This document shows positions 12,595-43,810 of a stretch of 64,000 bases of DNA, one piece after another (the first letter of the stretch is position 1; every line of letters begins with the position of its first letter). Made by a program: the position numbers and the translations under genes. The DNA is from Anolis carolinensis (taxonomy: Eukaryota). The notes below the pieces were generated by a model that was not told the DNA's origin, searched no databases, and worked only from the letters and a program-made list of their open reading frames with translations. The stretch spans positions 88,645,574 to 88,709,573 of the forward strand of contig NC_085841.1 in NCBI RefSeq assembly GCF_035594765.1. The letters run 5' to 3'.

Positions 12595-12628
12595 CTACAA
12601 AGAAAAGGATAAGAGAAGAACAGATAAG

Positions 12629-13494
12629 TGTGATGACTCATGGGCCTTGTAGTTAGTTCCTAGTACTATTGTGGCAGACGAAGAGGAAAACATGAGGTTT
12701 TCGCCGGTTCAGCAAGAGCCGGAGTCTCTTCACCTGCAGGATGTTGATGTTTGCCCTCAAGAATTCAGCCAAACAGGCCTTGGGCAGAACTCCCCTCCGT
12801 TTCCCAGGAGGGAAAATTATTCTAAAGACAGGGGAGTCAGGGAGGCTAATCGGAGAAGCCTGAGAATCGCTGCCAAACAAATGGCTGATTAGGTCTGCTT
12901 CCCTTGGGAAATTCTAAGGAGTCATGCATCTGGACAGAGTTGGGTTTCGCTTCTCATTCTCTAGGGAAAGAGTTCTGTTGGCGGGAAAACGAGACCCAAT
13001 ATAGGTGTTTGGCGCGAGGGATTCTTTGCGGAGTCAATTGATCAGCTTGAGGAGAGAGATCGTGTGTGGACTTCGTAATCCCAGTTCCTTGTTTCCCGGA
13101 TCAAGCTTCAAGCCTTGCCCTGTCTCACGGTTTTACCATGGACTCTGTTTCATGCTTCATGTTCGCCTTGTCTTCAGTCACGGATCTAGCCAAGAATCAA
13201 GTTTATTTCCAGCCTTGTTGTCAAGCTTCATTGGACTCTAAGACTCTGTTATTTCCCCCACACTATTGCTTGGCAAAGTGTGTGTTTCGGTCAAGTGGAT
13301 TAAAACTTTGAACTCTAATATCTTATATTGGACAATACATTTCTGGACTATATTTGACCTCATCTGAAAGGTCTGCTTCTGAACTATATTCTTCACTTGT
13401 TTTTATTGATTTTATATATTTCCTTAATAAAGATATTAGATAGAGACTGGCCTCTGTGTAAGGTTATTGGTGCTCTGCAGCCAGGGACCTGACA
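12629..13494 (+). mobile_element. Solo LTR (Gypsy/BEL-type), 866 bp
   Basis: TG...CA termini, perfect 5-bp TSD ataag, AATAAA near the 3' end; homologous to the LTR at 30302-31207. Confidence 0.9.
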
Positions 13495-14014
13495 ATAAGA
13501 AAAACAAAATCAGCATTGTTGTTGTTTTTAAAAATATCTGGATATATAATTTTCATGAGAATGTTCATCGATTGTTTCTTGCAGGGGGTTCATTCAACCA
13601 TAAGTTGGGAAGATGATAACTGAACAGATGTCCCAAAGTAGATTAGTCATTTTGCATTTTTCACTGTTTTCAGACATCAGTATCATTTCCTATTAAATTA
13701 TCCTTTAAATTGTCCATTAAAAAGATTAACAAGTGTGATATTAAGCAGCCCCTTTTTTTATACAAAAAAAACTTCCTAGGAAATAACTCCCAGAACCAAA
13801 TACAAGCAGAAATTGATTTTTAAAAGACATCTTAGATGTGTTTGCTTTATAAATGTCAATATTCTGCCCTTTCCTCCTAACAAAATATCTCTGTAGGATT
13901 TTATTGTATCAGGAGACACTTCTTTTAGCCAGATTTAATATCAGACAAAAATGGAACCAGTGCCAAAAGGGGGATCTAATTCCTAAGAAGGAAAACAACT
14001 GATATATTATTGTG

Positions 14015-21749: not shown

Positions 21750-24700
21750 TAAGGTCGGAGTCTGCTAGAGAGACCAGAAACATCAGGAGGAGTGGTGTGC
21801 GGGCAGCTAAGAAATGAGCTCCCCGCTGCCATATAAATAGGGTGAAGCTGTTCCATTTGGAAGCATTTGATAGCCTGGTTGATGTGCTGCATCAATGATC
21901 GTTCTCACCACCTTGGAGTGGGGTAGGACTGGTTCCACCACGTGGTTAGGCATAGGTGATGCAAATCTGGATGAAAGCGCCAGCTGCCCTGGGCTGTGAG
22001 AAGATCTGGTCGCCCTCTGAGGGGGACAAAGAGTCATTAATGGGGCAAACCATGATTGCTGAGGCCACCATGGGGCGATGATGATGCAGCTGGCCTTGTT
22101 GGCATATAGCTTTGCAACCACTTTGGCCACAAGGGGAGTGGGCGGAGAGATGAACAGGAGAGGCCCATGTCAGTTAAACAGGAATGTGTCTCCTAGGCAG
22201 CCATACTGTAGGCTTTGCGGAAGCTTTGAGCAGTAAGATTGGCACTTTGTGTTGCCTGGTGCTCCAAATAGGTCAACCATGGGCAATTCCCATCTCCAAA
22301 AGAGGGTGGAAGCTTTGTCTGGACAGAGAGATCACTCGTGGTTGATAAGCACTGTCCTGCTGTGCCAGTCAGTCAGGACGTTGTTATTTCCTGGAAGATG
22401 TACTGCTATGAGACATATCCCCTGGGGATGCACCAATTTCATATGACTACAGTAAGACCGAGAAGTGCGATGGACTGCATGCCCCCTGTTGTCTGTCACG
22501 AGTTGCATTACATGCCCCAGGAGTGAAGACTCGAAAGCCCCGAGGGCCTTCTGAATGGCTACCAGTTGATATGCCACCCAGCCTCCTCTGTTGACCACAG
22601 GCCTTGGGCTGTGAGGGTGCCTGTATGTGCCTCCAATTAGTGAAGACAGGCATCCATCATGAGTGCCATTGTTGGCCCTGGAGGGCCAAAAGGTTTGCCC
22701 GTGACACCAGCAAAGTGAATGCCACCCTGTACATGCCACCATGGGGGGGGGGTGCATGAGTTGTGATGGAGCAGGTAAAACACCCGTAGGAACCAGGCCT
22801 GTAGGGGCTGGAGACAAAGGTGCATTGATGTCATGTGTCCTAGTATTGATTGGACGTGTCTGGCCAGTATGGTGGGGTTGTGTAGTGCCTGCAACACTGC
22901 TGATTGAAGAACCGGAAGATGTTCCCTGGATTGTATGGAATTCAAGGTAGCTCCAAAAAGCCGGGTCTGCTGTGTTGGCCAAAGGTGTGATTTCTCTTGA
23001 TTGACAACTAGGTCAAGACCCTGAAGAAGTGATAAGGTGATTTTTATCTGCCCGAGAAGCTGTGTCTGAGATTGAGCGACTAGTAGCCAGTCGTCAATAT
23101 ATGGGTACATTGTGACACCAAGAAGCTGAAGGTGAGCCGCCATCATGGCCATGCACTTTGTGAAGACCCATGGTGCCATGGAAAACCCAAAAGACAAAAC
23201 TTGGAAACAAAAGGCCCGCTGCCCTATCATAAATATGAGGTACTTCTGATGTTACAGCCTGATGACAATGGTCTTTGAGATTTATAGTGGTGAACCATGC
23301 CCCCTTGGGCAGCAGGGGAAGAATGGTGAGATGGGTCACCATCCATAATCTGTGTGCTTGGATATAGTGTTTGAGACCTCTGAGGTCCAGTATTGGCCAC
23401 TGGTTGCCGTCCCTCTTTGGGACAAGAAAATAGCACGAAAAATTGTGCAGAAACATTGATGGATGCAGTGGAATGACTGCTCCTTTACCCAACAGGGTGT
23501 GAACTTCATCCCAAAGAACTTACATACTACCCTCCGGACTATATCCAGGACCCAGCCATCTATCGTGATGGTCCTCCATGTGGGAAAAAGGTGGCCAACT
23601 GTGCGCCAAACCATACGTGTGGATTGGGACCCGCATCTGTGGCGGAAGTGCTCATGAGTGCTGAGATATGATGTGGCCAAGAAAACTGTTCAACCGTGTA
23701 GGGAAGGGTAGTGTTAATGGAAGGGCATGTTCAGCGCTAAAACCAACACCTTGGTTTGCTCTGATATCACCCCTTATCCTGCTCCCGCAGTTTGGATGGT
23801 CCAGGCTGCCTGCTGGAGGTGGGCAACCTAGGCTGTGACACACCTCATGCTCTGGTATAAGGTCTGCAGGTATATGTTCCCAGCAGTGGCCATCTTGTCC
23901 TGGGTTGGTATGATGACTGGGGAGGGAAGCCAAACTTATGTGCAGCTGGTGCAGCTCCTGCATGTTCTTTAGTTGGGTGCCTGTGTCCAGGTTGAACAAA
24001 CCTTCGTCATAGGCAGAAAGGGCTTTACCTTTCTCTGACAGCATCAAAGCCTGGAGCCTATGTACCTGCAAATGGCCGTAGCTGTTGCAAATAGCCTGCC
24101 TGCTGTGCCTGCCATGTGCTTGGCCATCTCATTCTGAGCTCTTGCCAGAACCATGGTGGAATGCCCTAGCAAGGCTCTGTTGGTCAGCAGGGAGGAGATC
24201 CAGATAAAGGGCAATCTTTCCCCAAAGGAAATCTTGATATGCTGCCATATACACACCATTGTGGGCAAGGCACCAAGCCTCGCCTGAGGGCACTTTCTTC
24301 CCCATCGTCTCTATCTTTCTGCCTTCATTATTTGTTGGTGTAAAATGTGCCTTGTGAGACTGTTTCCCCTGTGTGACATCAACAATGACAGAGTTGGGCT
24401 TGGGAGATGTTACTACCCACTGAAAGCTCTACACCCTATGTGGCATGAGCCTGCTTTGAGACATCTGGAGCCACCATTGATGGTAGGTTCAGTGTCCTAG
24501 CCAACTGGAGAAGGTAAGGTAAGGATGGCACTGGTGTGGCCACAGGAGCATGTTGTAGCTGTTGTTCCGACAAGAGGAGCGGGTCATCCACAAACTGGGG
24601 GGATGTGGGTGCAGAGAAATTCAAATTGTGTTCCAAGTGGATCATAAGGGCTGAGAAACCCTCACCTGCCGTGCCTACAGGTGGTGGCTGAGCATTTGCC

Positions 24701-25090
24701 ATGGCAGCGGATGAATCAGCTGATGTGTCAGATGCATCAGGTAACAGTACAACCAGTGAAAAATGAGACGTCCCAACTGCCACATGAAATGGGCTCCATG
24801 GGCCCCCAATTGCACTGTGTTTGACAGTACCAATGGGGCCTGAATATTGTGATAACAAGAAGCATCTGTGGACCCAGTCGAGTGATGGACATGTTCAAAA
24901 TATGGCCTGTTGTAGGGCTGTGCCAAATAATACGGTGGCAAGCAATCTTGATAGTGATACCATGTTAAAAACCTCAATCATCAGGGTAGTGCCATGGTGG
25001 GCTTTGGGATCAAGAGGACCACAGCATTGCCCCCAGAGATGTACCGATGTGAATTTCTCTCAAAGTGAGAAATGCTGCCAAAGCTGATAA
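21750..25090 (-). mobile_element. DIRS-type retrotransposon fragment (gag-like, RT, RNase H, MT-like), degenerate
   Basis: YFLVPKRDGNQWPILDLRGL, FQVLSFGFSMAPWVFTK, YPYIDDWLL, VNQEKSHL, AVHLPGNNNVLTD, IIIAPWWPQQSWF. Confidence 0.88.
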
Positions 25091-28616: not shown

Positions 28617-31600
28617 AAGAGATATAGTAGTCATGGGTGATTTCAACTATCCCGATATCTGTTGGAAAACAAACTCGGCCAAGAGTACAAAGTCCAACAA
28701 ATTCCTCACTTGCCTTGCAGACAATTTTATGGTCCAGAAGGTAGAAGAGGCAACAAGGGGATTAGCTACTCTTGATCTCATCTTAACAAATGTGGAAAAC
28801 CTGATCAATACAGTCGAAGTTGTCAGATCCTTAGGGGCAAGTGACCATGTGCTCCTGCAGTTTGTGATACAATGGAAGGCTGAAACTAAGACAAGTCAAA
28901 CACGCATTCTGGACTTTAAGAGAGCTGACTTCCAAAAAATGAAGGAAATACTGAGCAGCATTCCAAGGACACTAATATTAAAAGACAAGAGACTTAAGGA
29001 TGGATGGGAGTTTTTTAAAAGTGAAATACTCAAGGCGCAAATGCAAACAGTGCCAACAAAGAAAAAAAACAAGACAAGTGCGAAGAAGCCAGAATGGATG
29101 TCCAAAGAACTTCTAACCGGGCTAATACTCAAAAGAGACATGCACAAGAAGTGGAAAAGGGGAGAAATCACCAAAGAAGAATTCAAATGTATAGCCAACT
29201 CCTGTAGGGAAAAGGTTCGCAAGGCTAAAGCGCAAAAGGAGCTCAGGCTTGCCAGGGACATCAAATACAACAAAAAGGCTTTTTTGCCTATGTTGGTAGA
29301 AAAAGGAAGAACAAGGAGGCAATAGGGCCTCTGCGAGGAGAAGATGGGGTGATGGTGACACGGGACAGGGAAAAGGCAGAACTAATTAATGCCTTCTTTG
29401 CCTCGGTCTTCTCACAAAAAGAAAGCCATCTTCAACCTCAGCAACATAGAATGGATGAAGGATTAGGGGAAATCCAACCCCAAATAGGGAAACAAGTTGT
29501 CCAGGAACACCTGGCCACTCTAAATGAATTCAAGTCCCCAGGGCCAGATCAGGTACATCCAAGAGTATTGAAGGAACTAGCTGAGGTTATTTCAGAACCA
29601 CTGGCAATTATCTTCGAGAGTTATTGGAGAACAGGAGAAGTCCCAGCAGATTAGAGGAGGGTGAATGTAGTCCCTATCTTCAAGAAGGGAAAAAAGAACG
29701 ACCCAAACAATTACCGTCCGGTCAGCCTCACGTCGATACCAGGCAAGATCCTGGAAAAAATCATTAAGGAAGTGGTCTGCGAACATCTAGAAACAAATGC
29801 AGTCATTCCGAATAGCCAACACAGATTTACCAAAAACAAGTCATGCCAGACTAATCTGATCTCTTTGTTCGATAGAGTTATGAGTTGGGTTGATACAGGG
29901 AACGCTGTGGATGTAGCCTACCTGGATTTCAGTAAGACCTTCAACAAAGTCCCCCACGACCTTCTGGCAAACAAACTAGTAAAATGTGAGCTAGACAAAA
30001 CTACGGTTAGGTGGATCTGTAATTGGCTAAGTGAATGCACCCAAAGGGTGCTCACCAATGCATCATCTTCATCTTGGAAAGAAGTCACGAGTGGAGTGCC
30101 ACAGGGTTCTGTCATGGGCCCGGTTCTGTTCAATATCTTTATTAACGACTTAGACAAAGGGTTAGAAGGCACAATCATCAAGTTTGCAGACGACACCAAA
30201 CTGGGAGAGATAGCTAACACTGCAGAAGACAGGAGCAGAATTCAAAATGATCTTGACAGACTAGAGAGATGGGCTGAAACTAACAAAATGAAGTTCAACA
30301 GTGTGATGCCTCATGGGTTTTGTAGTCCTGTGCCTAGTGTCACCGTGACAGATGAGGATGAAAACATGGGGTTTTCACAGCCAGAGCCAGAGTTTTTCCA
30401 GATGCCTGAGGTTCTTGTCCAAGAACCAATTAAAACTGACCTTGATCAATGCTCACCTCCCTTCGCTAGAAAGCAATCCTTCTCGGCAGATAGGGGAGTG
30501 AGAGAGAGAATTCGGAGGAGTGCCCGAATTGCTGCCAAGCAAGAGACTGATTTGCCATGTTTCCCCTGGGAAAATCCAGTGAGTCTCACACCTGCAAGTT
30601 GGGTTTCGTTCCCTGTTCTCTAGGGAAAGAGAACGCTGGACGCCCGTTTGGCGGGAAATGAGACCCAGATAAAAGTATCGGGCTCTGTTGATTCTTTGCG
30701 GAGACAACAGCTCAGCTTCAGGAGTGAATTCCATGTTCCCAGCCTAGTGTGGACTTCGCTAAGTCCACAATCCAGTTTCCTTGCCTCGCCTGCTCAAGTC
30801 TCCAAGAATTGCCTCGCTTTGTCCTTAGTCACGGATTTTGTTCTTAGAATCAAGTTTTCGACTACCTTGCCTCGTTTTGAACCACGGACCTTGTTTCCTA
30901 GATTCAAACCTTGTTCCCAGCTTCCTTGTGGATTTAACCTTGTGCCTTGAAAGACTTTGGACAATTCCCCTCACTATTGCCTGGCAATAGTGAGTGTTTC
31001 GGTAATGGATTTTATCTTTGAACTCTAATATCATTTATTGGACAAACTATTCCTGGACTATTTTAAACCTCATTTGAAAGGTCTGTTTCCGGACTATATT
31101 CTCTACTTGTTTTTATCCTTCTTATATATTTCCTTAATAAAGATATTAGATAGTTTTATTGGCCTCCGTGTCTGGTTCTTGGTGCCCCGCTGCCTTGGTG
31201 TGTGACAAACAGGGACAAATGCAAGATACTTCACTTCAGCAGAAAAAATGGAATGCAAAGATACAGAATGGGGGACACCTGGCCTGACAGCAGTATGTGT
31301 GAAAAAGATCTTGGAGTCCTCGTGGACAATAAGTTAAATATGAGCCTACAATGTGATGCGGCGGCAAAAAAGCCAACGGGATTCTGGCCTGCATCAATAG
31401 GGGTATAGCGTCTAGATCCAGGGAAGTCATGCTACCCCTCTATTCTGCCTTGGTCAGGCCACACCTGGAATACTGCATCCAATTCTGGGCACCACAGTTG
31501 AAGGGAGATGTTGACAAGCTGGAAAGCGTCCAGAGGAGGGCAACTAAAATGATCAAGGGTCTGGAGAACAAGCCCTATGAGGAGCAGCTTAAAGAACTAG

Positions 31601-41400: not shown

Positions 41401-42776
41401 AACACATAGCTGGGATCGACAGAAGCAACATGGGCACAGTCCAGTCACTTTATCTGTGCTGATGATCACAGAGAAAAGGGGATGGCACCAGTGTCCCATC
41501 TGGACAATGAATTCGTCTGAATAAGATCTGATCCCGCTATTCAGGTTGCCCTCAAATTCAATGCTCAGTACCACAAAATCAGCTTAATATGGAAACTCTT
41601 GCAATACCCATTGGAATCTGGTGGACATTGTTGGAACAGCCAGAATTGAATTCAAGATGAGTCCAGGTTTTCCTGCCCATGTAGAGCTGCCTATAGTTAA
41701 CAATATGTTTCCCCAACAATGATTGTTTTTGTATTTAGCCCTAATTATCTGTTTTCATTCATTTTTCCTTAAATTTGTGTACTTTGTCCTCCTCATTTGA
41801 GAAAGACTTTAAAGCAAGGATGGGCAACAGTGGTGTCAAAAACAGAATAAAAATGGCCAGCAGACCAGTTCTGTTTCTGAAAAGACTTTTTAAGATGTTA
41901 TACAGAACGGGGGGGGGGGGGGGGAGAAGTCAATCTATGTAAAGACAAATTACCATCCATAAGGTTTCCACAAGAGGCAACTGATTTTGTGGGACATGTC
42001 TGGAAGGTCAAAAGCCAGAATATGGCCCTGGGATCTGCATGTGATTCTAAGGCTTTACCTTTGTTGACCCTGATACAGAGTAGCAATGTAACTCTTCATA
42101 AATTTATTCTCACAGACAAGAGTGAAGAATTTCACATTTTTATCTTTATTCCAAGACAGTATTCTAAAACCTTTTCAAGTATTATTAACAGTTTGAGACA
42201 ATTCTATGGAAAGAAAAAAACTCCCTTCTTGCACTTAAAATAGTATTCTGCACAAAACTATCATTTTCTACATGCACAAATACCCACATATACAATATCT
42301 GTGTGCATTTTCCATACAAAAATTGTAAGAAATATTGCCTGTCTAGGATTCTCCTAGGTGTTTCAAGAATTGAGAAACTATTTTTCAAACATTTCTCAAA
42401 TCTTTGGGAATATTCTATCTTACAGGAAAGGCTGAAGGATTGTAGGCCAGAGGATGAGCACATACTTTCTGAGGAAGATGAGGATAATTTGTGGCATCTC
42501 CAGGCAGAGCTGGAAAAATATCACTTATATTTCATACATTTACAGTACACCAGTAGTAGAATAACAAATACCCATGTCCATGGGGTTACTCATAGACAAC
42601 TTACAACTAATCAGGCAGTGTGTAAGGAAGCCTGAACTCCCAGGCTTGGATAATGTGACATTTACTATATGTAATACCATGCAAATCACTCCATGTCCCA
42701 TTTGACAGACACTCATGAGATGTGCCTATAGGGAATGAATGCATTCTGACAGTAGAAGCAAGACTCGAGGACTTAC

Positions 42777-42988
42777 GTTGACAGTTCTTCACATCAAGAG
42801 CATCTCCGAAATACCCATCAGCACACTTTTCACAGTACTGGCCTGTTGTACCTGGCTTACATATCAGACAAGCTCCAGACAAGCTGTCACAGCTGCCAGG
42901 AATGGAGAAGTCAAGGTTGTCATTACATCGGCAAGGCTGGCATGATCCCCCCGGTATTAAAGGTTGTCCGAAATAGCCTTCTGCACAC
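42777..42988 (-). CDS. LAMA2: Laminin alpha-2 coding exon (exon 19 equivalent, 212 nt)
   Basis: tcctag|G TGT GCA ... TGT CAA C|gtaagt; CAEGYFGQPLIPGGSCQPCRCNDNLDFSIPGSCDSLSGACLICKPGTTGQYCEKCADGYFGDALDVKNCQ. Confidence 0.97.
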
Positions 42989-43810
42989 CTAGGACAACAA
43001 ACAGAAACCCTTAAGAGTACATACACTGGCCTGCTGCAATTATAGAAAAATATATACAATTTCATTTTCCTATGAATCACTAAACAAAGCTTTATTTTCT
43101 GTCTCAAGCATTTCTCAGATCTTCCTCCCACCTCTTTTCCATTTTTCCTTTTAGCTTCTTGAACAGTGATGTAGATTCATTACTCACTGAAATCCTGCCA
43201 GTTCCACTAGTTATTACATTTGTGTGTGTTAGTATGGGGGTGCTGGAGGGGAAAGCAGGGAGGGACCTGGTCATTGGAACTGCAGATGAGATAAAAGCAT
43301 ATTAAGAAATGTGTCCATTCATATTCTAGAGAAAATCAGGTTCATGCTGAGAACTCTTTGTGTAACTCTCCAAAAACAATGTTCTTCTCCTATGCTAACC
43401 AATCATGAAGGCTGACATTCTAGTGCTGTGCATAAACAGCCTCTTTAGAATGGAAATCAAACATTCCTTCCTAAAATGACAAAGAAATATAACACATGCA
43501 TAATAAAGAAGAAAATACCTGTCTGCCACAAAAGGGTGTGTTGAATTATACATGCACACAATTTAATGCAAGAAACGCTTACTTCATTCTGAGCAAAATC
43601 CTATACATAGCTTCTGAGATGTAAATCCCACTGAATTCAACAAGATTTACACCCAGGTTAAGTATGTATAGATGGATGGATATCATGTTCTAGCTTGAGA
43701 TTGAAGACCACTACAAAGAACACACAAGATACAAAAATCCAAGCAGATAAAAATCAAATATCTTTGTATTTGATTTTTATCAAATATCAAATATCTTTTG
43801 GTATGGATAC

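Follow-up and report, generated by a model that had tools for sequence, protein, structure and literature searches.

The end of the pol gene of a lizard retrotransposon is encoded inside its own 3' LTR. Two solo LTRs in the window, a 64,000-nucleotide stretch of the Anolis carolinensis genome, carry a short open frame in U3, and the peptide that it encodes is almost certainly a selected tail of the Pol protein. In full-length copies of the element, the pol frame passes from the chromodomain through the polypurine tract and across the LTR end into U3, stopping just past a motif, RRSxR, that resembles the nucleosome-binding core of HMGN proteins. An earlier note, made from the window alone, had left open whether the peptide was the C-terminal tail of an integrase that extends into the 3' LTR or an LTR-borne accessory micro-protein. 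The full-length elements decide for the first, since their pol crosses the polypurine tract.

Two solo LTRs and their setting

Both LTRs, one of subfamily A and one of subfamily B, are solo LTRs, as the note had called them, with TG...CA ends and a 5-bp target duplication, ATAAG for subfamily A (12624-12628 and 13495-13499) and AACAG for subfamily B (30297-30301 and 31208-31212). They align at 52-83% per 60-column block. Over the 18 codons from D to Q (from 12827 and from 30489), 15 of 18 residues are identical and exactly the eight codon pairs given in the note differ synonymously; the LTR alignment holds three further synonymous changes in SPPF. The subfamily B frame is open from LTR base 2 and extends to 30623, beyond the stop position of its siblings. 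The subfamily A frame has a 1-nt gap near its start (near 12654, relative to a sibling copy) and is intact downstream of the gap up to the stop. The note called the peptide acidic, which is true of the first two thirds but not of the end, which is basic.

Table 1. Features of the two solo LTRs, in window coordinates.
Feature	Subfamily	Position	Strand	Remark
Solo LTR of an anole Ty3/Gypsy chromovirus	A	12629..13494	+	TG...CA ends, 866 bp
Integrase-tail frame in U3	A	12630..12892	+	pol-fused in full-length copies
Acidic block DEEENM of the tail	A	12677..12694	+	
RRSLRIAAK, HMGN-like motif closing the tail	A	12851..12877	+	
TATA-like stretch, putative	A	12998..13005	+	~30 nt upstream of the putative start
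Self-priming target, 10 nt	A	13028..13037	+	complements the element's primer-binding site; putative U3/R border
AATAAA polyadenylation signal	A	13426..13431	+	
Solo LTR of the same chromovirus	B	30302..31207	+	TG...CA ends, 906 bp
Integrase-tail frame in U3	B	30303..30551	+	83 codons
Acidic block DEDENM of the tail	B	30351..30368	+	
RRSARIAAK, HMGN-like motif	B	30513..30539	+	
TATA-like stretch, putative	B	30668..30675	+	~30 nt upstream of the putative start
Self-priming target	B	30698..30707	+	putative U3/R border
AATAAA polyadenylation signal	B	31136..31141	+	

Most of the window is intronic sequence of a laminin-type gene. An exon with laminin EGF domains lies on the minus strand at 42607-43176, and both LTRs are antisense to the laminin-EGF exon sequence at about 42.6-43.0 kb. 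As its flanking frame indicates, the subfamily B LTR sits in a reverse transcriptase fragment that we take to be CR1-like. The LTR is in frame with this fragment, creating a chance 322-codon fusion of reverse transcriptase and tail (29655-30623). Two database models that end in the same tail, P0007 (a cation ATPase) and P0008 (a reverse transcriptase), are probably chimeras of this sort. A decayed element bearing a reverse transcriptase, presumably DIRS-like by its motifs, occupies 22332-24900 on the minus strand.

A self-priming chromovirus

Each of the two LTRs has at least 39 other copies among the matches listed, at 98-99% identity for subfamily A and 98-100% for subfamily B, and both LTR subfamilies are young. 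Sixty LTR loci were examined: 38 are solo LTRs with a 5-bp duplication, 8 are 3' LTRs, and 14 are of other kinds or could not be resolved. LTR pairs about 5.4 kb apart mark full-length elements of 6.2-6.3 kb, with LTRs that are 97-99.8% alike. These elements contain gag plus pol in another frame, with no further frames and no env. Pfam matches in full-length copies give the pol domain order PR-RT-RH-IN-SH3-chromodomain, and the nearest proteins in the database bear the label Anolis carolinensis Gypsy integrase. The chromodomain is of group I; its F, W and Y/F align with the three cage aromatics of HP1, and it would be expected to read methyl-lysine.

No tRNA primer site was found behind the 5' LTR. 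Ten nucleotides at this place complement LTR nt 397-412 in 6 of 10 elements; one of the other four has 7 nt at the same place, and three have none or were unparsed. Subfamilies A/E/F differ from B/H by a compensatory change in the complement; between the two window LTRs, the target has a change that is matched in the primer-binding site. In the Tf1 model, the complement to the primer-binding site marks the start of the RNA, which would place the transcription start at about LTR nt 400, with a TATA-like stretch some 30 nt ahead of it and AATAAA close to the LTR end. Self-priming is a mark of the Tf1/sushi chromoviruses (PMC6317226), and the vertebrate chromoviruses have been named the V-clade (PMC2774666). 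Judged by its sequence, the element is a Ty3/Gypsy chromovirus, probably of the Tf1/sushi (V-clade) group. In a tree it groups with amphibian chromoviruses (89/88) among unnamed relatives, from a sampling that Sushi-ichi and Amn lie outside.

Young copies of one subfamily, 140 in number, are scattered across five large chromosomes (C1-C5), and 46 of them lie in the outermost fifth of a chromosome arm, a count that ties in the hit list may bias. The centromeres of these chromosomes are, we assume, median. Dispersal and end enrichment say nothing specific about a tether. At three places on C2 (117.05 Mb, 256.29 Mb and 50.55 Mb), chromodomain matches 5.4 kb apart suggest head-to-tail elements that share an LTR, and at one locus (L224) integrase sequence comes immediately after the LTR, which points to a rearrangement or an internal deletion. 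Another, very young Gypsy family has a single frame of about 1,600 codons. It was found with an SH3-model search and rejected as a tail carrier: the frame ends 11 residues past SH3, with no in-frame chromodomain or tail.

Pol reads through into the 3' LTR

In intact frames the stop falls at LTR nt 251-293, or about 250-290 nt inside U3, and the anole tail is 83-97 residues long. The junction is in frame in all 30 subfamily A 3' ends. For two other subfamily queries, no stop interrupts the frame from the chromodomain to the end of the tail in 149 of 150 and 147 of 150 best hits, a ranking that favours intact copies. Since the stop lies at nt 251-293 and transcription would start near nt 400, a solo or 5' LTR should be unable to express the tail from its own promoter.

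The lineage of the subfamily B copy at 30302 is less regular. Here, the polypurine tract includes a slippery G run, and 11 of 18 junctions have lost the frame at it. The tree of this lineage intersperses copies of either kind, a pattern that fits recurrent slippage or errors in the assembly. Three of the out-of-frame copies, however, form a group with a support of 0.986, so that tail-less templates may have been copied. The G run varies in length among siblings within one lineage; in other subfamilies the run is interrupted and the frame is preserved. Among the sequencing runs listed as carrying the element, none is recorded as RNA. In contigs of two possibly-RNA runs, 160 nt spanning the tail end are missing; two other runs do not show this gap.

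Selection on the tail frame

We collected 80 distinct open 3' ends, which form 14 clusters, and used one natural copy for each of eight subfamilies. The dN/dS set leaves out all out-of-frame junctions and six single-copy clusters, five of them frameshifted or short (L107, L115, L121, L081 and L095) and one a solitary copy in which the first motif residue is His (L088). The subfamily B representative has a shifted stretch in integrase, and its integrase values are void.

Across subfamilies, the tail has been under purifying selection, as the note had proposed. Omega for the tail is 0.09-0.52 in all 28 pairs of the eight subfamilies, with a pooled value of 0.33 versus 0.07 for the chromodomain, and four disjoint pairs give a pN/pS of 0.36 (p 6e-18). 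The other two sense frames give 1.13 and 1.00, with 30 and 67 stops. The antisense frames give 1.20, 1.17 and 0.47, the last being the shadow frame, with 29 stops. In the 300 nt of U3 after the stop, pN/pS is 0.85-0.87 and there are many frame-breaking gaps. Within the tail, the ratio is 0.29 in the N-terminal part, 0.39 in the middle, 0.46 from SPPF onward and about 0.15 over the nine motif codons (19.7/28.7 synonymous versus 8.3/79.3 non-synonymous, p 5e-9). Differences in tail length are all multiples of 3, among frames that had been selected as open. The codon pattern is not chance.

The selection acted on active elements and not on the solo copies in which the note had seen it. Young siblings of the 30302 type have a pN/pS of 1.27 (15 pairs), which fits neutral decay after insertion. 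The corresponding value for the 12629 type is 0.40 (14 pairs, p 0.02) and probably includes differences between source lineages. L107, L115, L121, P0007 and P0008 are subfamily A variants with a different pre-motif stretch, and individual copies are often frameshifted at a C run in SPP.

A motif like that of nucleosome anchors

The first, second, third and fifth residues of the motif (R1, R2, S3 and R5) are invariant in all eight subfamilies, with 2-3 codons used for each. Position 4 is Leu or Ala (Leu in six of the eight) and position 6 is Ile or Leu. Among the 80 distinct open ends, RRSxR is present in 67 and has one change in 4; one end is cut short and 8 are frameshifted. In the cryo-EM structure of Dsup on the nucleosome, the contacts to H2A/H2B are R363, R364, S365 and R367, with R367 as the anchor, and the ordered part of HMGN2 is RRSAR (PMC12487698). 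Yeast Dot5 binds the acidic patch via the three arginines of RRSARIAT (PMC13347269), and RRSARIAA of subfamily B is identical to this in 7 of 8 residues. The acidic-patch motifs that have been tested carry Ala or Ser at position 4. The tether idea gains support from the match between invariant residues and contact residues, together with the motifs of Dot5 and of the lizard Podarcis. Nevertheless, RRSxR can arise for other ends.

The tail matches no Pfam family at E 0.1 or 0.05, and nothing in PDB sequences or the Atlas. Weak matches to nef (E 0.3) were taken as chance. Neither an HMGN domain nor a stand-alone small protein was found; the tail is part of pol. The predicted fold has a mean pLDDT of 38.6, with a helix over the last 25 residues, motif included, at a pLDDT of about 70. 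A helix running through the motif, as this model would have it, is one for which we saw no description in HMGN or Dsup. AlphaFold 3 misplaces even HMGN2 (PMC12487698).

Tails in other squamates

In the squamate branch, proteins extend 83-117 residues past the chromodomain, whereas most of 111 further relatives end within about 30 residues of it. RRSxR[ILV] occurs once in these 111 proteins (109,062 residues), at the end of a Podarcis pol. A profile search of 1.84 billion representatives added further squamate tails and, among 145 new proteins, one more RRSxR[ILV], of the anole type. Proteins from Podarcis, Crotalus, Vipera, Rhineura, Salvator and Naja have a common junction register, G-D-S/G/N-V-M/V. 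Given this register, the non-anole tails, seen in protein records only, would also be encoded in LTRs. In all six genera the first 60 tail residues are acidic.

The ends of the tails differ. All five Podarcis records that reach the tail, of two sequence types, end in RRSARLKA, and the rest of the tail is diverged. Crotalus, Vipera and the worm lizard Rhineura have Arg-rich ends without RRSxR, and the Salvator and Naja models end early. The last 35 residues have a net charge of +4 to +10 in all six complete squamate tails, and the motif is found in Anolis and Podarcis only. Since snakes and the worm lizard do without the motif, what is conserved may be no more than the need for a basic end. The tail carriers form one branch (93/98), which also includes one tail-less chimeric Rhineura model; the tree was built from 35 sequences, of which 18 are hand-picked environmental proteins.

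What the tail may do

We lean, with moderate confidence, toward the view that the terminal R-R-S-x-R is an arginine anchor that docks on the H2A/H2B acidic patch, a second nucleosome grip for the integrase beside the chromodomain. In this mechanism, the pol polyprotein would end with the U3-encoded tail behind the chromodomain, and the tail would stay attached to the mature integrase, with its acidic middle as a flexible spacer. The chromodomain would read methyl-lysine, and the motif would grip the acidic patch whatever the histone marks. Nuclear retention or target capture would be the step at which the anchor holds nucleosomes. As reverse transcription duplicates the LTR, the frame would also end up in 5' and solo LTRs, and there be silent. 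We are evenly divided on the broader proposal that a squamate chromovirus branch grew an integrase module from its own U3, converging on the motif of HMGN, Dsup and Dot5 to yield a two-handed nucleosome reader.

The main rival, a different role for the basic end as a nuclear import signal or a general DNA- or phosphate-binding helix, is unlikely but deserves serious consideration. Conservation of the basic end beyond the range of the motif would be expected of such a role, as would the helix predicted for the last 25 residues, and a C-terminal nuclear localization signal is known in Ty1 integrase (PMC3605345). However, neighbouring basic positions exchange or vary, but across the eight subfamilies and Podarcis the Ser is invariant and R1, R2 and R5 are never changed from Arg to Lys. 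Moreover, classical importin-alpha signals carry a Lys cluster, which the motif does not have.

It is improbable that the tail is cut off by the element's protease, or acts in particle assembly, RNA chaperoning or anti-silencing, the motif then serving as a free peptide that binds chromatin or RNA. A long low-complexity acidic linker does separate the chromodomain from the motif, and the out-of-frame junctions suggest that the tail can be absent in cis, but the residues at the junction are dictated by the polypurine tract and the LTR end.

The accessory micro-protein of the earlier note, translated from its own ATG, is very improbable. An in-frame ATG is present at LTR base 5-7 in all eight subfamily representatives (M invariant, one codon), but it belongs to the TGTGATG terminus, and Crotalus and Vipera have Val in its place. 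The tail frame is fused to pol and lies entirely in U3, about 135-145 nt upstream of the likely transcription start, which largely removes this reading, and both solo LTRs are antisense to the host laminin-type exon. The analogy with nef and sag also misfits a frame fused to pol: these are accessory genes that overlap the LTR, with a separate frame and their own transcript. Finally, it is scarcely credible that constraint on U3 as DNA or RNA accounts for the codon pattern, since, for all that U3 holds promoter elements and the ratio after the stop is slightly below 1 (0.85), the bias is frame-specific, synonymous sites are more diverged in the tail than in integrase (pS 0.52 versus 0.35-0.41), and frame-keeping indels are confined to before the stop.

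Relation to known systems

Several known systems resemble the anole element or its tail. With Sushi-ichi, Amn-ichi and Amn-san of the V-clade, the anole element shares gag and pol in two frames, the domain order of pol, self-priming without a tRNA primer and the 5-bp target duplication (PMC2774666, PMC6317226); the squamate branch adds the putatively LTR-encoded residues that most relatives lack. Extension of pol into the 3' LTR has been reported for plant CRM group A and for the beet Reina-type element Bingo (PMC3059260, PMC3605345). Like the anole element, the CRM elements continue pol past the polypurine tract and have a putative chromatin-targeting module in the 3' LTR (PMC3059260, PMC3605345, PMC6317226). 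In CRM, however, the CR motif replaces the chromodomain, whereas the anole element keeps a chromodomain with an aromatic cage upstream of the polypurine tract; CRM is centromeric, whereas the anole copies are dispersed, more toward chromosome ends. Our comparison with the CR motif is one of layout, not of sequence. Bingo resembles the anole element in that a chromodomain precedes the polypurine tract and the frame reaches into the 3' LTR, but its chromodomain is of plant group II, and the available text describes no selection test or motif (PMC3605345).

HMGN (RRSARLSA), Dsup (RRSSRLTS) and Dot5 (RRSARIAT) share with the anole tail the pattern R-R-S-x-R-hydrophobic within a low-complexity region (PMC12487698, PMC12480509, PMC13347269). 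The anole motif differs in ending a retrotransposon integrase, in having mostly Leu at position 4 and in the absence of an HMGN domain, and its binding is predicted. Arginine anchors tether foamy virus Gag (through its CBS), KSHV LANA and CMV IE1 to chromatin, and loss of the Gag anchor shifts foamy virus integration sites (PMC9040877). The common element would be a mobile genome, here putatively, tethered to the acidic patch. In contrast to the anole tail, those anchors are on Gag or nuclear antigens, have other sequences, and are neither part of an integrase nor LTR-encoded. The available part of the arginine-anchor review makes no mention of HMGN or of a retrotransposon (PMC9040877). Read-through into the LTR was already known in plant chromoviruses. 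In the open literature, we found no LTR-encoded tail in vertebrate chromoviruses and no HMGN-like integrase motif; subscription journals, Repbase or supplements may note read-through.

Implications

What would an acidic-patch anchor mean for chromoviruses? First, no other retrotransposon integrase would have been known to carry an HMGN-type anchor, and the HMGN-like motif would now have a selfish element among its carriers. The invariant residues of the motif match a structurally solved nucleosome anchor, which makes the proposal directly testable with a 30-residue peptide. Second, it bears on how chromoviruses hold chromatin beyond the chromodomain and on the partner of the plant CR motif; if true, it would be a pointer to the working of LTR-encoded targeting tails such as that motif. 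Third, the tail would account for a class of anole gene models, chimeras that terminate in the tail peptide. Fourth, if the proposal is true, U3 DNA has become a selected protein module across lizards and snakes.
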